Positions 4,596 through 25,982 of a DNA stretch of 29,913 nucleotides are shown here, piece by piece (the stretch's first letter is position 1; each line of letters begins with the position of its first letter). Under the pieces are notes generated by a model that saw only the letters and a program-made list of their open reading frames with translations, was not told the origin of the DNA and made no database searches. The translations under genes were made by a program, and so were the position numbers. Source of the stretch: a virus (lineage: Duplodnaviria > Heunggongvirae > Uroviricota > Caudoviricetes); the IMG/VR virus record IMGVR_UViG_2724678986_000028; one strand, given 5' to 3'.

Positions 4596-4985
4596 ATGAT
4601 TGACGCTCATGACTTCACAAGATGGGTGCGCACACAGGACACCCGTCTGGCTCCCATTCTTCGGGGATTATTTGATCTCTACATTCGTGGTCGTGACAAC
4701 AGAGCACGCACCACAAAACCGGAGAATGTGGATACCCTTTATTTCACAGTAGACGACTGCTACCGCGTGGACTTCACACCACACGGACTGGCGTTGCACT
4801 GCCTGACACCGCACGGCGAATCACTGCTGGCGTATTACGACTCCCCGGCCTCCGTATTTGCGGCAATGCTGGCGCATCGCACTGCTGGCGGGTGTGTCTC
4901 GCTGAGTGAATACACCGCTGAATTTAACCGCCTTTCCACCATCTTCTTGCAGGAGTGGCAGCGCGTGACGGGATACCAGCCATGA
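4596..4985 (+). CDS. Hypothetical protein immediately upstream of the replication gene
   Basis: 129-aa ORF; its stop overlaps the gpA start as ATGA. Confidence 0.5.
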   Translation: MIDAHDFTRWVRTQDTRLAPILRGLFDLYIRGRDNRARTTKPENVDTLYFTVDDCYRVDFTPHGLALHCLTPHGESLLAYYDSPASVFAAMLAHRTAGGCVSLSEYTAEFNRLSTIFLQEWQRVTGYQP

Positions 4986-7822
4986 GTGCGTTTGCATGGA
5001 GCTGGAATGAACCACGGCCAGCCATTGATCCGGCCAGATTTACGGAGCGCAGGCAGGAAACTGAAACCGACCTGCAACGCGCCATCCGTTACTACCTTGA
5101 GGCAAACAAAAGGGCACAGGAAGAACAGGAAGCGAAGGAGGAAGCCTTTTTCGCACAATCCACCGTGGGTAAAAAACTCATGGCATCCCTTGAGGAAGCC
5201 GGACAGCGTGAAAAGCTGGCACAAAGCATCATCAGCAAGCGTCAGGCAACAGAACAAGACCCGGTGGCCCGTGCTTTTGCCACACTGAAGGTGCTTCCCG
5301 TTTATCTGCGTGAACCTCTGAGCCGCCACCTCTCTTTTCTGCGCAAGAAGCAGGAAGCCGATCGTCAGAAAGGCAAAAAGAGCTGGCAGGCTGAACGCTA
5401 CGCGCGCGGAACCCTGCGCAAAATATTCGAACGTCTGGACCGCACCGACAGCCGCTGGCTGACACCGGGCTATCGCTCCCTTGCCGGACGCGAACGCCTG
5501 GACGATTTGCTTTACCTGCCGCAGCTCAACAAACACCAGATACAGACGCTGGCCACCATGACGGCGGCGATGTTCAGTGGCACTTTTGAAAAACTCTGCG
5601 ATGGCTTTGGCGCGACCGATGGCGAGCTGACCATGGATGTAACGCTGAAGGCGTATCAGATGCTGGCCCGCATGGCGTTACACCTGCACGCTATGCCTCC
5701 ACATTATGACGCTCTGACAACAGACAAAGACCGGAGGAATGAACCGGACACGGAGCTGCTGCCGGGCGCAATCCTTCGCCTGACCTGTGCGGAATGGTGG
5801 AAACGCAAACTGTGGCTGTTACGTTGCGAGTGGAGAGAAGAACAACTCCGCGCCGCCTGTCTGGTTTCCAGAAAAACATCACCCTATCTGAGCCAGGACG
5901 CGTTAAGCGAGTTTCGCGCACAGCGCGAGAAAACACGCGATTTCCTGAAAAGTTTCATGCTGGAAAACGAAGACGGGTTCACGATTGATCTCGAGACAGT
6001 GTATTACGCGGGAGTAAGTAACCCGATTCACCGTAAGGCAGAAATGATGGCCACCATGAAGGGGCTGGAACTTCTGGCCGAAGCCCGTGGCGACAGAGCG
6101 GTGTTTCTGACTGTCACCTGCCCGTCAAAATACCACGCCACAACAGAGAACGGTCATCCGAATCCCAAATGGAACGGGGCCACCATGCGCGACTCCAGCG
6201 ATTACCTGGTTAACACGTTTTTTGCGGCGGTCCGCAAGAAACTGAACCGCGACGGCCTGCGCTGGTATGGCATCCGCACGGTGGAGCCTCACCATGACGG
6301 CACCGTGCACTGGCATATGATGGTCTTTGCTCATCCGGAAGAAATCGACACCATTGTGTCCCACACCCGCGATATTGCCATTCAGGAAGACCGCCACGAG
6401 CTGGGCAATGATATTACTCCGCGCTTTAAGGTGGAGTATGTCGACGGCTCAAAAGGCACGCCAACCAGCTACATCGCCACCTACATCGGAAAGAACCTGG
6501 ACAGCCGCGCCGTGGATGGCATCGACCCGAAAACGGGCAAGCCACGCGTTGACCACGAAACCGGAAAATCAATGGCCGAGAGCGTGGAACGCGCCATCGG
6601 CTGGGCACGCCTTCACCGGGTCCGCCAGTTCCAGTTCTTTGGCATCCCCTCCCGTCAGGTATGGCGTGAACTCCGCCGCCTTGCCAGCCAGATGGCACGC
6701 AACCCGGAAGGCCCACAACGGCTGAAGGATGATGCAATGGATGCGGTACTCGCTGCCGCTGATGCCGGGTGTTTTGCCACCTACATTGAGAAACAGGGCG
6801 GCGTACTTGTTCCACGCAAAGACTACCTGATTCGCACCGCCTACGACCTCGCAGATGAGCTGAACGATTACGGCGAACAGAGCGTACAGATTTACGGGAT
6901 CTGGTCACCACTCATCGGGGAATCCTCCCGTGTGTGCACGCACCCGGATAACTGGAAGCTGGTAAGACGTAAACCGGAAGCGGAAGACAGCACCCGCGAA
7001 AATGGTTTTGACCTTCAGGGCGGCCCTGCCGCCCCTTGGACTCGTGGCAATAACTGTCCCCGTGTACAGGAAACGGACAACAACGGGACAGAACAGCCGG
7101 AAGAAAGGCCAGCACCGTGGCCGCAGCTTCCTGACGGCGTTGACGTGAATGAATGGATGCGCTCACTGAAACGGCACGAACGCCGGGCGCTGATGCGTTC
7201 GCTGCGTGACAAACAGGCAAAAAACAGCAGTGATGAAATGCAGAACTGGACACAGAGCCGCAAACAGCCACGGCCTTTGCCTGATAACCACGAGTTACTC
7301 GCTAAAGAATGGCGGGAGTCTGCTGAATCTCTCGGCCTGCATATCGGTGAACAGCAGATGCAGCACCTGTTACGGGGCGGCAGTCTGTACGTTGACGGCA
7401 GCATCATTGCACCGCAGGGATTTGAAATTGTACGCAAACCAGATACCCGCCCGGACAGCCGAATCACGCAACTCTGGCAGCGCCTGAGCCGTAATCACGG
7501 CGTAAGCAGCACGGAGATCCGCCATAACCCGGTCGCCAGCTATCTGGAACAGCTGGGGGCATCAGACCCCGAAGCCGCCGCACACCTGGCATCCACACTT
7601 CAGCAGGACCAGAACACCATGAAAACCCCCGTTACCGTGCTTTCTGACATGCTGCGCGCCATCCGTGACGCAGTGCACGCACAGAGAATCAGTGAAACCA
7701 CTGAACGCGCCCACCGCAAAGCAGACCTGCTGCGGGGTAGCCTGACCAGTGGAAACAAAAAACAGACAGAAACGGGACTCACAAATCCCGTAAATGAGCA
7801 AAAAACGTGCCGCGATATATGA
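4982..7822 (+). CDS. A: Rolling-circle replication initiator, P2 gpA family (HUH endonuclease)
   Basis: About 946 aa. HUH motif VHWHMMVF and paired-tyrosine motif SYIATYIGKN are visible. First ATG at 4982; the GTG at 4955 in the track has no usable SD. Confidence 0.85.
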   Translation: MSAFAWSWNEPRPAIDPARFTERRQETETDLQRAIRYYLEANKRAQEEQEAKEEAFFAQSTVGKKLMASLEEAGQREKLAQSIISKRQATEQDPVARAFATLKVLPVYLREPLSRHLSFLRKKQEADRQKGKKSWQAERYARGTLRKIFERLDRTDSRWLTPGYRSLAGRERLDDLLYLPQLNKHQIQTLATMTAAMFSGTFEKLCDGFGATDGELTMDVTLKAYQMLARMALHLHAMPPHYDALTTDKDRRNEPDTELLPGAILRLTCAEWWKRKLWLLRCEWREEQLRAACLVSRKTSPYLSQDALSEFRAQREKTRDFLKSFMLENEDGFTIDLETVYYAGVSNPIHRKAEMMATMKGLELLAEARGDRAVFLTVTCPSKYHATTENGHPNPKWNGATMRDSSDYLVNTFFAAVRKKLNRDGLRWYGIRTVEPHHDGTVHWHMMVFAHPEEIDTIVSHTRDIAIQEDRHELGNDITPRFKVEYVDGSKGTPTSYIATYIGKNLDSRAVDGIDPKTGKPRVDHETGKSMAESVERAIGWARLHRVRQFQFFGIPSRQVWRELRRLASQMARNPEGPQRLKDDAMDAVLAAADAGCFATYIEKQGGVLVPRKDYLIRTAYDLADELNDYGEQSVQIYGIWSPLIGESSRVCTHPDNWKLVRRKPEAEDSTRENGFDLQGGPAAPWTRGNNCPRVQETDNNGTEQPEERPAPWPQLPDGVDVNEWMRSLKRHERRALMRSLRDKQAKNSSDEMQNWTQSRKQPRPLPDNHELLAKEWRESAESLGLHIGEQQMQHLLRGGSLYVDGSIIAPQGFEIVRKPDTRPDSRITQLWQRLSRNHGVSSTEIRHNPVASYLEQLGASDPEAAAHLASTLQQDQNTMKTPVTVLSDMLRAIRDAVHAQRISETTERAHRKADLLRGSLTSGNKKQTETGLTNPVNEQKTCRDI

Positions 7823-7868
7823 AGCGCGCACAAAACAGGCAAAAGCGGGATTTAAAAATCCTGTAACC
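7760..7868. repeat. Imperfect direct repeat (two ~36-bp copies, each with an internal dyad) spanning the A 3' end and the parM leader
   Basis: Copy 1 at 7760-7795 (AAACAGACAGAAACGGGACTCACAAATCCCGTAAAT) and copy 2 at 7833-7868 (AAACAGGCAAAAGCGGGATTTAAAAATCCTGTAACC), about 27/36 identical. Each contains a CGGGA...TCCCG-type dyad. Confidence 0.5.
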
Positions 7869-7898
7869 GATTAATTAATCAACACAAGGAAAAGCGAC

Positions 7899-8858
7899 AT
7901 GAAAATTTGTATCGACGACGGCTCCACCAACATCAAGCTGGCGTGGACTGAGAACGGCGAACGCCGCAACGCCATCAGCCCGAACAGCTTCAAGTCGGAA
8001 TGGTCTGCGCCGTTCGGTGGCACGCAGCCCGCGAACTACATGCTTGATGGCGTGCGCTATGGTTTTGATCCGGTCAGCGATCGCTTTGTCCAGACGACCG
8101 ACACGCAATACCAGTACAGCGATGTGAATATAATTGCCATTCATCACGCGCTGGTCAAATCAGGCATCACACCACAGGAAGTGGATGTGGTTGTCACCCT
8201 GCCACTGAGCGAGTATTTCGATACAAACGCACAGCCGGACATGGCCAACATCAACCGCAAAAAAGCGAACGTCATGCGCCCGGTGGAGTACCAGAACGGC
8301 GAAGCATTCACTATCCGTAACGTACGGGTTATGCCTGAATCCATTCCGGCTGGCTTTAAGGCACTGGCTGACATGAGTCCGTTTGAATCCCTGCTGATTG
8401 TGGATTTGGGCGGAACCACTCTGGATGTGGCAAAGGTTCAGGGGCAACTGGCAGGTATCAGCCAGGTGTTTTGCGATCCACACGTGGGCGTTTCTCTGAT
8501 GGCCGATGCCGTACTGTCGGTGATGGCCACTAACGGTATGCGCACCAGTCACCACATCGCCAATACCATTATCGAACATCGCCATGATGAAGCCTGGCTG
8601 CGCCAGCACATCCACAATGACGCGCATTACGCCAGCCTGATGGCGGTTATTCGTGAAAAGGAAGAAACACTGAAACAACGCGTGATCCGCGCGCTGGCGG
8701 GTTTTTCGGGTTACGGGCGGGTGATGGTTGTCGGTGGAGGGGCGGAGATTGTGGCACCCGCTATCCGCGAAGCCTGCGGAGTTAATGCGACTTTCATCGC
8801 GGACGGGGTGCCACAGTTTGCTCTGGTTAATGGGCTGTACGCAATGGACAAGGAGTAA
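7899..8858 (+). CDS. parM: ParM/StbA-like actin-fold partition ATPase
   Basis: 319 aa. Actin-fold motifs IDDGSTNIKL (phosphate 1), IVDLGGTTLDV (phosphate 2) and VVGGGAE (adenosine). Collinear over its full length with plasmid R1 ParM as recalled. RBS AAGGA upstream. Confidence 0.85.
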   Translation: MKICIDDGSTNIKLAWTENGERRNAISPNSFKSEWSAPFGGTQPANYMLDGVRYGFDPVSDRFVQTTDTQYQYSDVNIIAIHHALVKSGITPQEVDVVVTLPLSEYFDTNAQPDMANINRKKANVMRPVEYQNGEAFTIRNVRVMPESIPAGFKALADMSPFESLLIVDLGGTTLDVAKVQGQLAGISQVFCDPHVGVSLMADAVLSVMATNGMRTSHHIANTIIEHRHDEAWLRQHIHNDAHYASLMAVIREKEETLKQRVIRALAGFSGYGRVMVVGGGAEIVAPAIREACGVNATFIADGVPQFALVNGLYAMDKE

Positions 8859-8862
8859 ACCA

Positions 8863-9174
8863 ATGACGACTCCAACCAGACGGATAAGTTTCTATCTGAA
8901 GCCCACCGCCGTCAAGAACGAAGGAGAAGCATGCGCCTGGCTGGACAGCCTTACACCAGAAGCCCGCAAAAGCGGCCAACGCGTGGCTTTTCTGGCCGGG
9001 CTGGCACTTCTGAAAATGAATCCGGCAGAGGCTTATCGACTGGCTGCATGGGCTGGTGATGAAGCGTTATCAGTGACACAAACCAGGACAGAACGCCCCG
9101 CATCACAGCCAGTATCAACCGCACAGATAACCAGTCAGATGGCCGGAAATATCCGGGCGTTATTTCCTGAATAA
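8863..9174 (+). CDS. parR: ParR/StbB-like centromere-binding adaptor
   Basis: 103 aa from ATG 8863, with AAGGAG 7 nt upstream (the track ORF from 8728 is over-extended). N-terminal RRISFYLKP...RVAFLAGLALL resembles the ParR RHH region; C-terminal NIRALFPE resembles the R1 ParR tail as recalled. Confidence 0.6.
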   Translation: MTTPTRRISFYLKPTAVKNEGEACAWLDSLTPEARKSGQRVAFLAGLALLKMNPAEAYRLAAWAGDEALSVTQTRTERPASQPVSTAQITSQMAGNIRALFPE

Positions 9175-9182
9175 CACAACAT

Positions 9183-9200
9183 CAGGGCGAGTTCGCCCTG
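9183..9200. repeat. Stem-loop CAGGGCGA-gt-TCGCCCTG
   Basis: Perfect 8-nt inverted arms, 9 nt after the parR stop; no T tract follows. Confidence 0.5.
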
Positions 9201-9237
9201 CTCTCCACCTCAGAACATAAACAAGGAGAACGACTTA

Positions 9238-9828
9238 ATGAGCGAAATCAACTATCAGGCATTACGTGAACGTTATTCACCTGTGCCAGTACCGAAATGC
9301 CCTATTTGCGGCGAGGAAATGTCAATTCAGCGAATATCTGGAGCACAGGTTGTTTATGCCTGCTCCGGTTATGGTGATGATGGAGATTTCAAAATTGGCC
9401 GAACTCTTGCCGACGAACATTATGAAAAATCACGCGTAACAGTGTTGGATGTCGGGGATCCTGAAGTATTGGCGCTACTTGATTGGCTGGAAACCAAAGA
9501 CAACCGAATCGCTGAACTGGAAAAAATCGCCACTGACTATGCACTTAAATTCCAGAAAGCACAGGACGCATTAAAGTATGCCGCTTTGCTGCATAGCAGG
9601 ACGGCGCAACAAACAAATAATTTTGCAGTATCGCTTCCGGACATAAGCGAATATTTCATTAATGACGTATTTCAGCCCTTGCGATACGAGCGGGATGTTG
9701 AAAGAGCCATCATAAAGGCTGGCGGAAAAGCATTGTGGCAGGAGAAACACGAGGACAGAACGCATCAGTCCTGCGATGTAAATCGTGGATGGTTTAGCCC
9801 ACTGACGACAGATAAAAATAACACCTGA
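9238..9828 (+). CDS. Hypothetical protein, Cys-containing N-terminus and central coiled-coil-like segment
   Basis: 196 aa; AAGGAG 9 nt upstream; N-terminal CPICGEEM...YACSGYG. The 3' half is AT-richer. No family assigned. Confidence 0.5.
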   Translation: MSEINYQALRERYSPVPVPKCPICGEEMSIQRISGAQVVYACSGYGDDGDFKIGRTLADEHYEKSRVTVLDVGDPEVLALLDWLETKDNRIAELEKIATDYALKFQKAQDALKYAALLHSRTAQQTNNFAVSLPDISEYFINDVFQPLRYERDVERAIIKAGGKALWQEKHEDRTHQSCDVNRGWFSPLTTDKNNT

Positions 9829-9840
9829 TCCCCCTCAAAC

Positions 9841-9866
9841 CAGGGCGATAATCGCGCATCGCCCTG
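9841..9866. repeat. Stem-loop CAGGGCGA-N10-TCGCCCTG, same arms as 9183-9200
   Basis: Identical 8-nt arms to the element upstream of the 196-aa gene; sits 12 nt after its stop. Confidence 0.5.
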
Positions 9867-9867
9867 C

Positions 9868-9901
9868 TGCACAATAGTGCACAAGTTTGCACAATTTTTT
9901 T
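9868..9901. repeat. Three TGCACAA iterons at exact 10-bp phasing followed by a T7 tract
   Basis: TGCACAA at 9868, 9878 and 9888, then TTTTTTT at 9895-9901; lies in the noncoding region upstream of the portal end. Confidence 0.5.
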
Positions 9902-10268
9902 GAACGACTTTTTACCCTTCCGGCCCGCATGGCGGCTGGATCCGTCAAGGATCCGTGCGTGCACAAAAAAACGCGCTTTTTCTGCGCGCAGGTGACGGGG
10001 GAACAGCCCGCGTTTCAGGGGGTAAATAGCATCCCCTGAACGATGTCGCAGCGACACAACAGAATGGCTGTATTTCTCACGCTGAGCGTGAAGAATACGT
10101 GAGGGATTCTGATTTGATGGGGTGAAAGGTAAGGCCGTCAAAATCGCACTGAGGCGGCGAGAACATGCAGTCAACGCGGTGGGATTGCGTAAGAGTCTGA
10201 CCGTCGATGGTGGCGATAAACTGGAAGGCGTCGTGAAATTATCTGACTGATACAGGAGCTGGAGAGTC

Positions 10269-10291
10269 GGGGCATAAATTTTTTATGCCCC
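10269..10291. repeat. Palindrome GGGGCATAAAtttTTTATGCCCC downstream of the portal gene stop
   Basis: Perfect 10-bp arms, 28 nt downstream of the Q stop on the minus strand. No flanking U tract, so terminator status is uncertain. Confidence 0.4.
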
Positions 10292-10318
10292 GGCGAAGCA
10301 GCAGACAAGCGAAGCGCG

Positions 10319-11365
10319 TCAGGATGTGGGCTGGGTGTCTAACAGTGCGTAAGGGTTAAAGCGGATCACCTCTTCGCCAAGCCAGTCATTGATGTGCTTC
10401 ATGGCCTCCATGACGGGCATCAGCTCGTTAATTGCGTAAACCCGCGCGGCCTTCTCCACATCACCAAACGCACTTTTTTCACCCGGCATCGCCCCCATCA
10501 GTTGCGGCGGAACGCGGTGCGCAGCCAGCACATCATCACGGGATGCCGCCTTAACATTCATGAACTCATCCTTTGCGGTGATCTGCTGGAACGGCAAAAT
10601 TTGCACCCCCTCTTTGCCCCCGTTGGGCGCATGAATGAGCACGTTTTTAAACGCACCACCACCACGCGCACCCTGTAGCGTTTCTTTCAGGGAGTCCATG
10701 CTTTCGCGGTTTACCTGCGCTGCACCGATGTAGATGATGCACCCGGCGTGGGATCCGTTGTCGTAATACAGTTTTCTGAACATGTCCGCCGAATGAGACA
10801 GGCTGGCCGAGAGTAATGCGCCGAGATATTCCGGCATGCCGTAGATTTCCTGGTTAATGTCCGGATTCATCAGGTGGCACACTTTGCCTGGGCGAAACTG
10901 AAACGCATCCTTGCCATCCTGCACATACCACCATGATTCAAGATCGCTTCCGCGTCGCATGTATTTCGCCAGGGCGTGCCGTAATTTAAGCGGTTCGCCG
11001 AGCATATTGCTTCGAAGCTCAAGGAATGCGTTACCGAACACAAACCAGTCCAGCGCCAGCGCCGAGAAATCCTGCCGGGAAAGCAGCGGGTGCGGGATGT
11101 AGCAACCGAGCAATACATTGCGCTTAAAGTAAAGCGCAGACTGATGCCAGGACGTTTGCCGGGCGGCTCTTGCCAGACCGTACCAGTCCACCGGGGTTTC
11201 ATACCACCGCCCGTTATCAGCACAGTACATATTGTCCAGCAGGTCATGCCCGGTCAGGCGATAAGGACCATCAAATGTGAATGCACTGAGCGATGATTCT
11301 TTCCTGAGCGCATCAGCGAGATCAATGCGTGAACTCATGCGCACTTTTTTATTTTTTCTGCTCAT
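10319..11365 (-). CDS. Q: Portal protein, P2 gpQ family
   Basis: 348 aa; position (after cos, before terminase), size and 1-nt stop/start overlap with gpP match the P2 Q-P arrangement. Confidence 0.85.
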   Translation of the reverse strand: MSRKNKKVRMSSRIDLADALRKESSLSAFTFDGPYRLTGHDLLDNMYCADNGRWYETPVDWYGLARAARQTSWHQSALYFKRNVLLGCYIPHPLLSRQDFSALALDWFVFGNAFLELRSNMLGEPLKLRHALAKYMRRGSDLESWWYVQDGKDAFQFRPGKVCHLMNPDINQEIYGMPEYLGALLSASLSHSADMFRKLYYDNGSHAGCIIYIGAAQVNRESMDSLKETLQGARGGGAFKNVLIHAPNGGKEGVQILPFQQITAKDEFMNVKAASRDDVLAAHRVPPQLMGAMPGEKSAFGDVEKAARVYAINELMPVMEAMKHINDWLGEEVIRFNPYALLDTQPTS

Positions 11366-18086: not shown

Positions 18087-19802
18087 CCAGTAAGAACTTT
18101 GCACTGATTACAGCCATGACACAGGCTGAACTGACTCAAAAGGTGAATGAACATCTTGCGAAAGGGTGGCATCTTCAGGGGGAGACGCGGGTTGCCTACG
18201 AACCCGGCACCCCGTGGTATCTAATGCAGGCAATGGTGGCCGATGGCACTACAGACATCTCACCTGATTCCCCCCAGCACGGCAGCGTGCCGGAGTGGTA
18301 TTACGTGGTGGTACTTGCTGGTCAATCCAATGCCATGTCATATGGTGAGGGAATGCCGCTGCCGGATTCTTACGATGCGCCCCACCCACGCATTAAGCAA
18401 CTGGCCCGTCGCAACACAGTGACTCCCGGTGGTAAAGCATGCGCATTTAACGACATCATTCCGGCAGATCACTGCCTGCATGATGTTCAGGATATGAGCG
18501 CACTGAATCACCCGAATGCAGACCTGAGCAAAGGGCAGTATGGCTGTGTCGGACAGGGCTTGCATATTGCCAAACGCCTGTTGCCTTACATTCCACAGAA
18601 TGCCGGGATTTTACTGGTTCCATGCTGTCGTGGTGGTTCGGCATTCACCCAGGGCGCGGAGGGGACATTCAGCGAGTCCACAGGAGCCAGTCAGGATTCG
18701 GCTCGCTGGGGTGTGGGTAAACCTTTATATCAGGACCTGATTTTGCGCACGAAGGCCGCATTGCAGAAAAACCCAAAAAACATGCTGCTGGCCGTATGCT
18801 GGATGCAGGGCGAATTTGACATGAGCGCCGCTACGTACTCACAGCAACCTCCGCTGTTTGCGGCCATGCTGAAACAGTTTCGTGCGGACATTACCGAGTT
18901 TAACACGCAGTGTCATGGAGGCAGAGCGGCAAGTGTGCCATGGATTTGTGGTGACACGACGTATTACTGGAAAAACACCTACGGCACGCAGTACGACACC
19001 ATTTACGGGGCGTACAAAAACAGGGAGAGCGACAACGTTTTCTTTGTGCCATTCCTGACCGATGGTAGTGGCAACAATACCTCCACCAACGCACCAACGG
19101 AAGATCCGGATGCTGCAAGTGAGGGATATTACGGTTCGGCATCCCGAACGAACAAAAACTGGGTATCATCAAATCGCCAGACGCATTTCAGTTCATGGGC
19201 GCGCNNNNNNNNNNNNNNNNNNNNNNNNNNNNNNNNNNNNNNNNNNNNNNNNNNNNNNNNNNNNNNNNNNNNNNNNNNNNNNNNNNNNNNNNNNNNNNNN
19301 NNNNNNNNNNNNNNNNNNNNNNNNNNNNNNNNNNNNNNNNNNNNNNNNNNNNNNNNNNNNNNNNNNNNNNNNNNNNNNNNNNNNNNNNNNNNNNNNACTG
19401 ACCAACAATCAGTTCGGTCTGGGAATTTATCTGTATACCGATGTAGCGTTACCTGACGTCGTGGCGATGACCGGGACTGGTAACCCGTTCCTGATGTCGT
19501 TCTTCACCCAGACCACAGACGGCAAACTGAATCTGATGCATCACAAGAAAGCAGGAAACACAAAGTTGGGCGAGTTCGGGAATTACAGTAACGACTGGCA
19601 GACGCTGGAGCTGGTGTTCACCGCCGGCAGTGCCACGGTTACTCCGAAACTGAATGGAGTGGCTGGCCCGGCATTCCAGGTCATAAAAGACAGTCTGACA
19701 CTGGGGCTGAATGCACTGACGCTGACGGATATTACCAAAAATGCAACGTATGGCGTTGAGATAGAAAGTCTGGTGCTGGAAATAAATAGTCCTGCAGCGT
19801 AA
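18083..19802 (+). CDS. DUF1737 + SASA/SGNH-type carbohydrate esterase (NanS-p-like), interrupted by an assembly gap
   Basis: ATG 18083 overlaps the o-spanin stop (ATGA). N-terminal MTSKNFALITAMTQAELTQKVNEHLAKGWHLQGE (DUF1737-like) is followed by VVVLAGQSNAMSYGEG (the GQSNM-type serine motif of sialate O-acetylesterase-family hydrolases). The 5' part runs 18083-19204 and the 3' part 19397-19802 in another frame, because the N run has arbitrary length. Confidence 0.6.
19205..19396. other. Assembly gap (192 N)
   Basis: Uninterrupted run of n; the true length and sequence are unknown. Confidence 0.95.
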
Positions 19803-25404: not shown

Positions 25405-25982
25405 TGACATTCAGAATGAGTGAACACTCACGGACCATAAAAATTTATAATCTACTGACCGGAACCAATGAGTTTATTGGTGAAGGTGATGCATACATTC
25501 CACCTCATACAGGTCTGCCTGCAAACAGTACCGATATTGCCCCGCCAGATATTCCGGCTGGCTTCGTGGCCGTTTTCAACAGTGATGAGGCATCGTGGCA
25601 TCTCGTTGAAGACCATCGGGGTAAAACGGTTTATGACGTGGCATCAGGGGACTCGTTATTTATTTCTGAACTCGGTCCATTACCGGAAAATGTTACCTGG
25701 TTGTCGCCGTATGGAGAGTATCAGAAGTGGAACGGCACATCCTGGGTGAAAGATGCAGAAGCAGAAAAACTGTTTCGGATAAGGGAGGCGGAAGAAACAA
25801 AAAACAGCCTGATGCAGGTAGCCAGCGAGCATATTGCGCCACTTCAGGATGCCGTAGATTTGGATATTGCAACGGAGGAAGAGGCATCGTTACTGGCTGC
25901 ATGGAAGACATACCGGGTATTGTTGAATCGTGTTAATACAGCGGTAGCAGCGGATGTTGAGTGGCCAGTCGCCCCACAATAA
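25404..25982 (+). CDS. Tail fibre assembly chaperone (gpG/Tfa family)
   Basis: 192 aa; ATGA overlap with H; C-terminal [22 protein letters not shown]...WP is typical of Tfa-family chaperones. Confidence 0.8.

Follow-up and report, generated by a model that had tools for sequence, protein, structure and literature searches.

An Ead/Ea22-like accessory gene in the hypervariable cargo slot of a P2-family E. coli prophage, and two hairpins of common core that follow different neighbours

The window, by which we mean the whole 29,913-nt stretch of DNA analysed here, is a P2-family E. coli prophage of the P88-like genus Xuanwuvirus, with 99.4% identity to Xuanwuvirus P884B11 over positions 7800-9912. 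The order along the segment of interest is gpA, parM, parR, the open reading frame (ORF) at 9238-9828, a set of TGCACAA repeats, the cos region, a hairpin at the tQ position and the portal gene. The individual features, in positions of the window, are as follows:

4955-7822, plus strand: gpA, the first backbone gene in the local gene order.
7899-8858, plus strand: parM, actin-like segregation ATPase, backbone (Pfam StbA_N, E = 3.7e-82; ParM C-terminal domain, E = 1.3e-68; phrog_691, 'partition protein').
8863-9174, plus strand: parR, StbB-type partition adaptor (Pfam Plasmid_stab_B, E = 7.8e-23 on the enclosing ORF).
9183-9200, no strand assigned: hairpin 1 (HP1), with arms CAGGGCGA (9183-9190) and TCGCCCTG (9193-9200) and spacer GT.
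9223-9228, plus strand: Shine-Dalgarno sequence AAGGAG, 9 nt ahead of the ATG.
9238-9828, plus strand: Ead/Ea22-like family gene, 196 aa (PF13935, RefSeq name, homologues, alignment and AlphaFold model).
9841-9866, plus strand: hairpin 2 (HP2), with CAGGGCGA (9841-9848) and TCGCCCTG (9859-9866); loop AATCGCGC.
9868-9894, plus strand: three TGCACAA repeats with a 10-bp period, part of the backbone, kept in all relatives and forming the exact right border of the slot.
9877-9899, plus strand: weak, putative terminator-like site of the backbone, GTGCA-CAAGTT-TGCAC followed by AATTTTTTT; its local fold is no better than that of shuffled sequences.
10268-10292, minus strand: perfect 11-bp hairpin past the portal gene, at the position of the P2 terminator tQ (P2 annotation).
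10319-11365, minus strand: portal gene gpQ, backbone, which closes the slot (phrog_68, E = 4e-153; Pfam Phage_portal).

An earlier note on this DNA, made from the sequence alone, had placed the ORF in the slot where P2-like phages carry defence cargo, and synteny with P2 confirmed this placement for the segment between gpA and the portal gene, which varies among relatives. The gpA-gpQ segment of P2-like phages is a hotspot for anti-phage systems (PMC9122126; PMC13586616), and in P2 itself the slot is occupied by old and tin (P2 annotation). Our locus resembles the cargo of this hotspot (old/tin; Rousset et al. 2022) in its syntenic position, its hypervariable content and its sharp borders. It differs from P2 in that, within the genus Xuanwuvirus, parMR lies between gpA and the slot, and further in that old-tin and several other cargos run leftward with a promoter of their own, whereas the ORF at 9238-9828 runs rightward and is promoterless. 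Mapping of cos by alignment to P2 yielded no usable similarity, and cos was placed by synteny only. A minus-strand ORF at 9794-10174 (126 aa, TTG start) had no family match and was treated as spurious.

Six annotated relatives share the backbone of the window up to 9169-9200 and carry other cargo thereafter, the parR stop codon being the leftmost point of divergence; the backbone resumes at 9864-9868 in five of the six and at 9822 in phage Chuche. The parR gene has an annotated counterpart of 312 nt at the corresponding place in P88 and other relatives. About 200 related loci were compared overall. The wider set drew on 80 IMG/VR loci that were found with the TGCACAA array as anchor, on 80 in which relatives of the protein are encoded, and on the contigs of four more distant homologues. 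The parR anchor was also held by 47 of the 80 anchored IMG/VR loci, giving about 33 cargo groups. In the window, the ORF at 9238-9828 is the sole cargo. Taken across these alignments, the slot is pieced together from small modules, each of which brings along a leader or a 3' stem-loop of its own; one example of a module-specific hairpin is GCGGGGC...GCCCCGC ahead of a module encoding 174 aa.

The right border of the slot is sharp: cargo stops immediately ahead of the first TGCACAA in 80 of 80 anchored IMG/VR loci, and most cargos end at that border in a canonical GC stem with a T-run, at the position held here by HP2. The TGCACAA repeats are also present in a relative without parMR (L007).

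As for the gene itself, which the earlier note had described as unknown, its product matched the Pfam family PF13935 (Ead_Ea22; IPR025153) over residues 2-140 at 110.7 bits (E = 1.1e-31), where the curated cut-off is 27, and its N-domain alone scored 59.9 bits for the same family. Identical copies bear the RefSeq name "ead/Ea22-like family protein", and a large protein database held 533 homologues. Among 5426 complete E. coli genomes, 129 had 80% or more of the segment 9100-9950. Judged by sequence, membership in the Ead/Ea22 family is solid, and the ORF is a real, conserved accessory gene. Many of the best-matching strains came from humans or cattle, and at least one was of type O26:H11.

Several features ascribed to the ORF from the letters alone were borne out. 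The strong ribosome-binding site is the AAGGAG at 9223-9228, 9 nt upstream of the ATG, and it belongs to a leader, GAACATAAACAAGGRG, which is common to the unrelated zf-ClpX-like first cargo gene of P88. The N-terminus does contain cysteines (C21, C24 and C42), and the coiled-coil-like middle corresponds to a helix at residues 75-123 in the AlphaFold model. The supposed AT-richer 3' half, by contrast, was not recovered: GC content lies between 0.43 and 0.49 across the entire ORF, and is lower in the whole of it than on the parR side (about 0.55).

The AlphaFold model (mean pLDDT 64) predicts a small beta-rich N-domain (about residues 1-72), the helix at 75-123 and then a small alpha/beta unit (130-167), with a disordered tail behind it. 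In the alignment of homologues, the N-terminal, coiled-coil and C-terminal parts swap independently, with at least four alternative N-terminal modules behind a conserved start, MSEINYQALRE, a conserved coiled coil, LLDELE...RIAELEKIATDYALKFQKAQDALKYA, and many alternative C-termini. Relative to the E. albertii orthologue, dN/dS for the whole gene was 0.51, with the coiled coil at 0.09 and the C-terminal part at 0.92, values which indicate that the gene is under moderate constraint. The N-module, with its CxxC...C pattern, is possibly a zinc ribbon; Pfam gave only sub-threshold matches to zinc ribbons, and NCBIfam likewise only sub-threshold zinc-ribbon noise. Searches with the C-terminal 72 residues alone against Pfam, and with the whole protein against PDB by sequence, returned no match. 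Foldseek, run with the AlphaFold model on viral and PDB libraries, gave none at E ≤ 0.001, its weak zinc-ribbon-like matches being non-significant. A PDB profile search brought up only PCNA, at a per-domain E of about 8; these matches were inflated by a chain that is a triple fusion, and were judged spurious.

Studied Ea22 proteins share with the protein encoded here a central coiled coil, a swappable C-terminal domain and an accessory gene positioned on the early strand. Stx-phage Ea22 variants have a modular build and an extra N-terminal domain that is absent from lambda Ea22 (PMC7093339; PMC10834534); the cysteine-bearing N-domain is common to the Stx-phage proteins (V1-V3; 933W, Phi24B and P27) and to ours, and is missing from that of lambda. 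In many matches, the segment holding this N-domain showed about 75% identity over roughly the first half of the protein. The start MSEINxQALRE is shared with lambda Ea22 at 10 of 11 residues, but past residue 11 there is no pairwise similarity between the two proteins. Moreover, the C-terminal domain resembles none of those described for Ea22. The lambda and Stx-phage proteins end in R/K-G-E (PMC7093339), and homologues of lambdoid type in our alignment end in GIRIKGE, whereas the protein from the window ends in ...PLTTDKNNT. The genomic setting differs as well, lambdoid ea22 lying in the exo-xis region under pL and the ORF at 9238-9828 lying between parR and the cos/portal region of a P2-family prophage. 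A tetrameric, pro-lysogenic Ea22 has been described for the lambda and Stx-phage proteins only (PMC7093339, PMC10834534), and transfer of the pro-lysogenic function to our protein is weak, because its pairwise resemblance to lambda Ea22 ends after residue 11. It is a modular coiled-coil protein and, by analogy with the studied Ea22 proteins, presumably oligomeric as they are.

Two hairpins with the same arms do stand on either side of the ORF, HP1 at 8 nt from the parR stop and HP2 at 12 nt from the stop of the ORF. Since a loop of 2 nt is sterically impossible, HP1 is to be read as a 7-bp stem, CAGGGCG/CGCCCTG, with a 4-nt loop, AGUU (AGTT in DNA), and its predicted fold has -13 kcal/mol (z -3.5). 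The true arms of HP2 are 9 bp long, CAGGGCGAT/ATCGCCCTG, around a loop of 8 nt, and the 51-nt stretch that contains it folds at -19.2 kcal/mol (z -4.1). The CTGCT reported to follow both hairpins is indeed found at both copies, as part of an identical 10-mer, TCGCCCTGCT; however, it consists of the last three bases of the arm plus CT, and the CT varies in relatives. Where 1.06 copies of the 8-mer would be expected, the window has 5, a count reached in 0 of 100 shuffles; and when the window was simulated with a first-order Markov model, only 1 run of 400 gave any two perfect 8-bp hairpins with a common arm. The pairing of hairpins with identical arms is thus beyond chance. HP1 and HP2 are the sole two hairpin copies in the phage, and an Rfam search at the hairpins gave no match, only STnc320 at chance level (E = 2.7).

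To which neighbour each hairpin belongs can be read from the junctions. HP1 was present in 30 of 53 distinct junctions downstream of parR: in 12 cases it preceded an Ea22-like gene, in 15 an unrelated zf-ClpX-like gene and in 3 other cargos, so that at least five cargo types (Ea22-like, zf-ClpX-like and three others) stand behind it. Its core, CAGGGCG/CGCCCTG, is invariant, with seven different loops (AGTT, GGTT, CATC, TATC, AACT, TATT and GAAAC), and its 3' arm forms a conserved island between the diverged loop and a diverged spacer. The remaining 23 of the 53 junctions diverge at the parR stop, most of them with an unrelated hairpin there. On the evidence of these junction sequences, HP1 belongs to parR and not to the cargo. 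A plasmid origin of parR and HP1 was rejected: the seven plasmid matches were P2-like prophages or phage genomes filed as plasmids.

HP2 keeps different company. Among 114 distinct right junctions, HP2 (at least 8 pairs) was found in 28 of the 28 encoding the RYERDVERAIIKAGG C-terminal module and in 0 of the 86 without the module. It follows the gene when this stands alone, and equally when it stands behind zf-C4_ClpX, 174-aa or methyltransferase-like modules. Both gene and HP2 also occur in the E. albertii phage without parMR (L007), which together with two further loci (L008 and L015) carries them without HP1. In phage Chuche the gene is gone, about 45 nt of its 3' end are kept, and the HP2 remnant is decayed and no longer folds. 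By this co-occurrence, HP2 flanks the Ea22 C-terminal module on its 3' side and lies within the variable segment.

These linkages bear directly on the notion of a discrete cassette that is gained or lost precisely between the hairpins, which does not agree with the loci compared: HP1 stays with parR before at least five cargo types, and HP2 moves with the C-terminal module only. The two hairpins have different owners and are therefore not two ends of one cassette. A mobile cassette with the hairpins as its recombination ends, exchanged in an attC-like or hairpin-mediated manner, would account for arms that are identical and non-random, for breaks of homology with P88 and PhiR44_2 at 9200 and 9868, the outer ends of the hairpins, for two near-empty slots (L142 and L169) with a deletion endpoint within HP1, and for an inverted HP1 loop in L125 (AACT against AGTT). 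We nevertheless regard this as highly improbable. HP1 precedes at least five unrelated types of cargo and is missing from 23 of 53 junctions, and HP2 is restricted to the Ea22 C-terminal module; together with HP2, the gene is also present where HP1 is lacking and behind other modules, even in a phage without parMR (L007, L008 and L015). Against other relatives the left break falls at the parR stop and not at the hairpin, and the right border of the slot is the first TGCACAA at 9868, again not a hairpin. Finally, the hairpins measure 18-26 nt and have perfect stems, unlike attC sites, and the prophage integrase is the sole recombinase in the window.

A further suggestion had been that of a shared regulatory hairpin. 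One form of it would be a common sequence-specific site for one factor that regulates or marks the segment, be it ParR, the Ea22-like protein with its possible zinc ribbon or a host RNA-binding protein. It keeps a small probability, as the 7-bp core is invariant over all HP1 and HP2 variants with the loops free to vary, even though these sequences are too closely related to tell selection from recent ancestry. The conserved island formed by the 3' arm of HP1 also speaks for it, as does the lack of visible parC-like iterons in the 76 nt upstream of parM; a type II partition locus (parMRC) has, besides the ParM and ParR that are clear here, a centromere of such repeated ParR-binding sites. It is weakened by the 23 of 53 parR junctions that do without HP1, most of them with an unrelated substitute hairpin, and by the retention of HP2 in the phage without parMR (L007); a fixed double-stranded operator is hard to square with loops of 3-8 nt, and the phage has two copies only. 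We therefore consider a common recognition site quite unlikely.

That both sites have the same 7-bp core is unexpected if any hairpin suffices. The 23 alternative junctions suggest that any hairpin would serve, and on that view sequence-specific selection is unlikely; our guess is that the common core, CAGGGCG/CGCCCTG, stems from common descent by way of recombination within the hotspot.

The hairpins most likely serve as punctuation of transcripts, as far as can be told from their sequence and placement. In common with intrinsic terminators and 3'-UTR stem-loops, they are short, GC-rich, perfect stems directly past stop codons, but they differ from intrinsic terminators in that HP1 and HP2 have no U-tract on the strand of the gene that each follows. 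They may also be comparable to stabilising stem-loops such as REP elements. Neither was called as a terminator on the plus strand, on which no U-tract is present. HP1 is terminator-like on the minus strand only, with 7 pairs and the tail ATGTTGTGTT; the HP1 of P88 scores more strongly as terminator-like on that strand, with a 10-bp stem and the tail TTGTGTTATT, and in L125 a minus-strand cargo gene of 198 aa ends about 35 nt from HP1. Among the single-base variants of the stems, two give G-U pairs on the plus strand and two on the minus strand, so that they favour neither strand; compensatory double changes were absent from the hairpin core.

On the minus strand, HP1 would thus act to stop leftward transcripts of cargo genes that run antisense into parR-parM-gpA. 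On the plus strand, where it has no U-tract, rightward transcription would pass through, and HP1 may stabilise the 3' end of the parMR mRNA. HP2 would be a 3'-UTR stem-loop whose most likely role is to mark the 3' end of the message or to shield it, just ahead of the backbone T-run at 9877-9899 and of cos.

No plus-strand promoter-like sites were found in 7700-10400, and the gene shares 4 nt with the cistron ahead of it in relatives. Because it is preceded by a good ribosome-binding site, lacks a promoter of its own and is oriented like gpA-parM-parR, the ORF is most likely the last cistron of a rightward early transcript of these genes; this co-transcription, like the terminator or stabiliser roles of the hairpins, we infer from the arrangement of the sequence. 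Co-cargo of the gene in relatives comprises a DNA-methyltransferase-like gene and a zf-C4_ClpX gene, both of them typical early accessory genes. In P2, the defence cargo old-tin is directed leftward and has its own mapped promoter beside cos (P2 annotation). Accordingly, the protein may be pictured as a factor in development or host interaction whose action falls early in infection or induction, as with Ea22 of lambda and of Stx phages.

With a probability of about 0.6, we favour the reading that the locus holds an Ea22 accessory gene in a hypervariable slot, with the hairpins as punctuation of two different neighbours. A competing reading sees in the ORF a new anti-phage defence made up of one gene, or a counter-defence, that is expressed from the prophage and insulated by the hairpins. 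The ORF lies within the gpA-gpQ hotspot, which has yielded many validated systems (PMC9122126); 19% of P2-like prophages have unknown genes only in the hotspot, and 6 of 8 randomly chosen unknown loci of the P4 hotspot protected against phages (PMC13586616). Rapid swapping of the N- and C-terminal modules, together with a dN/dS of 0.92 in the C-terminal part, is what an arms race would produce, and a DNA-methyltransferase-like gene is paired with the ORF in relatives. Against this, PADLOC gave no match at E ≤ 0.1 for the ORF, ParM or ParR, and Pfam, NCBIfam, PDB and Foldseek searches revealed no enzymatic or effector domain. The gene is promoterless and in the orientation of the early operon, unlike old-tin of P2, and studied members of the family shift the balance between lysis and lysogeny and do not act in exclusion (PMC7093339). 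An early accessory role is thus inferred over a prophage-expressed defence because of the missing promoter, the cistron overlap and the contrast with old-tin, and we regard a prophage-expressed defence gene as unlikely, and less likely than an early developmental or host-interaction factor. A combination of the two themes, in which the core hairpins are joints of the hotspot (preferred exchange endpoints or sites for a phage factor) and deliver the Ea22-like protein as an anti-phage or counter-defence effector, we hold to be rather improbable.

The preferred reading, of an Ea22 accessory gene with two separately owned hairpins, has value that is mainly corrective: an apparent orphan turns out to belong to the Ead/Ea22 family, and an apparent cassette with matching ends dissolves across about 200 loci. 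The Ea22 family, known from the lambdoid exo-xis region and from the lysis-lysogeny balance of Stx phages, is also a common cargo of the P2 hotspot, and this hotspot is made up of small modules with their own leader or 3' hairpin and has a very sharp right border at the phased TGCACAA array. Neither the occurrence of Ea22 as hotspot cargo nor the modularity of the hotspot opens a long-standing question. In a literature search, no paper was found that mentions these hairpins or ties Ea22-like genes to the P2 hotspot; the family and the hotspot were already known and the flanking stem-loops are ordinary, and the novel part is the C-terminal variant.

Small hints of recombination at the stems were also seen, namely the deletion endpoint inside HP1 in L142 and L169 and the inverted loop in L125.

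The right edge of the variable slot, which in the window carries a single Ead/Ea22-like gene (9238-9828, +), is set exactly by TGCACAA repeats, and these are kept in all relatives compared, among them one without parMR. Four of the eight TGCACAA copies in the whole window fall within the two stretches listed first below, followed by the other elements of the flanks and of related loci:

9868-9894, window: three TGCACAA copies with an exact 10-bp period
9960-9966, window: fourth TGCACAA copy, 70 nt beyond the three phased repeats
10268-10292, window: perfect 11-bp hairpin, CGGGGCATAAA ttt TTTATGCCCCG, immediately after the portal gene stop
4091-4615 in L013 and L014, 3728-4252 in L003: additional 174-aa gene, phrog_5091 (unknown function)
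2440-2470 in L007, 1960-1985 in L008, 2455-2480 in L015: leader hairpin GCGGGGC...GCCCCGC of the 174/169-aa cargo module

Phage P2 carries comparable TGCAT repeats to the left of its cos, to which the TGCACAA repeats are likened, and the latter could be a packaging array or a protein-binding array. P2 also has an annotated terminator, tQ, at the position matching the hairpin that follows the portal gene. In the three loci with the phrog_5091 gene, it is flanked by the TGCACAA/cos region on one side and the portal gene on the other; this interval forms a second small insertion slot, empty in the window.

The 174/169-aa module was always accompanied by its own hairpin-bearing leader in L007, L008 and L015. 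In L008 this leader is fused directly to the parR stop (CCTGAATGACGAATTT), a joint that hints at modules being reshuffled through short stretches of homology close to stop codons. At the junction downstream of parR in another relative, L125, the counterpart of the window hairpin at 9183-9200 has a 10-bp, P88-type stem and the loop AACT, the reverse complement of AGTT in the window; it looks as if this hairpin was flipped, or brought in with a leftward cargo gene. The protein alignment further showed that the ORF stop codon has been lost in some genomes (homologues P0013 and P0021), the reading frame continuing across the downstream hairpin and the TGCACAA repeats (...CSPSNQGDNRASPFCTIVHKFAQFF).

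The window, an integrating P2-like prophage, has a complete parM-parR pair (7899-9174) on board. Over the 76 nt preceding parM, no iteron-type centromere could be seen; the sole repeat there is the inverted repeat GGATTT-AA-AAATCC. One related locus, L219 (NZ_CP148288.1), is a circular record of 34,461 bp deposited as an E. coli plasmid, with a P2-like backbone like that of the window; the stretch examined encodes a replication endonuclease, parM, parR and terminase. This record may represent the same phage type maintained as a circular episome.

Elsewhere in the window, 192 N (masked or unknown bases) occupy 19205-19396, within the structural gene region. A full-length match to Rfam RF02111 (IS009; 25747-25945, +; 192 bits versus a gathering score of 117) is located at the tail-fibre end of the prophage.
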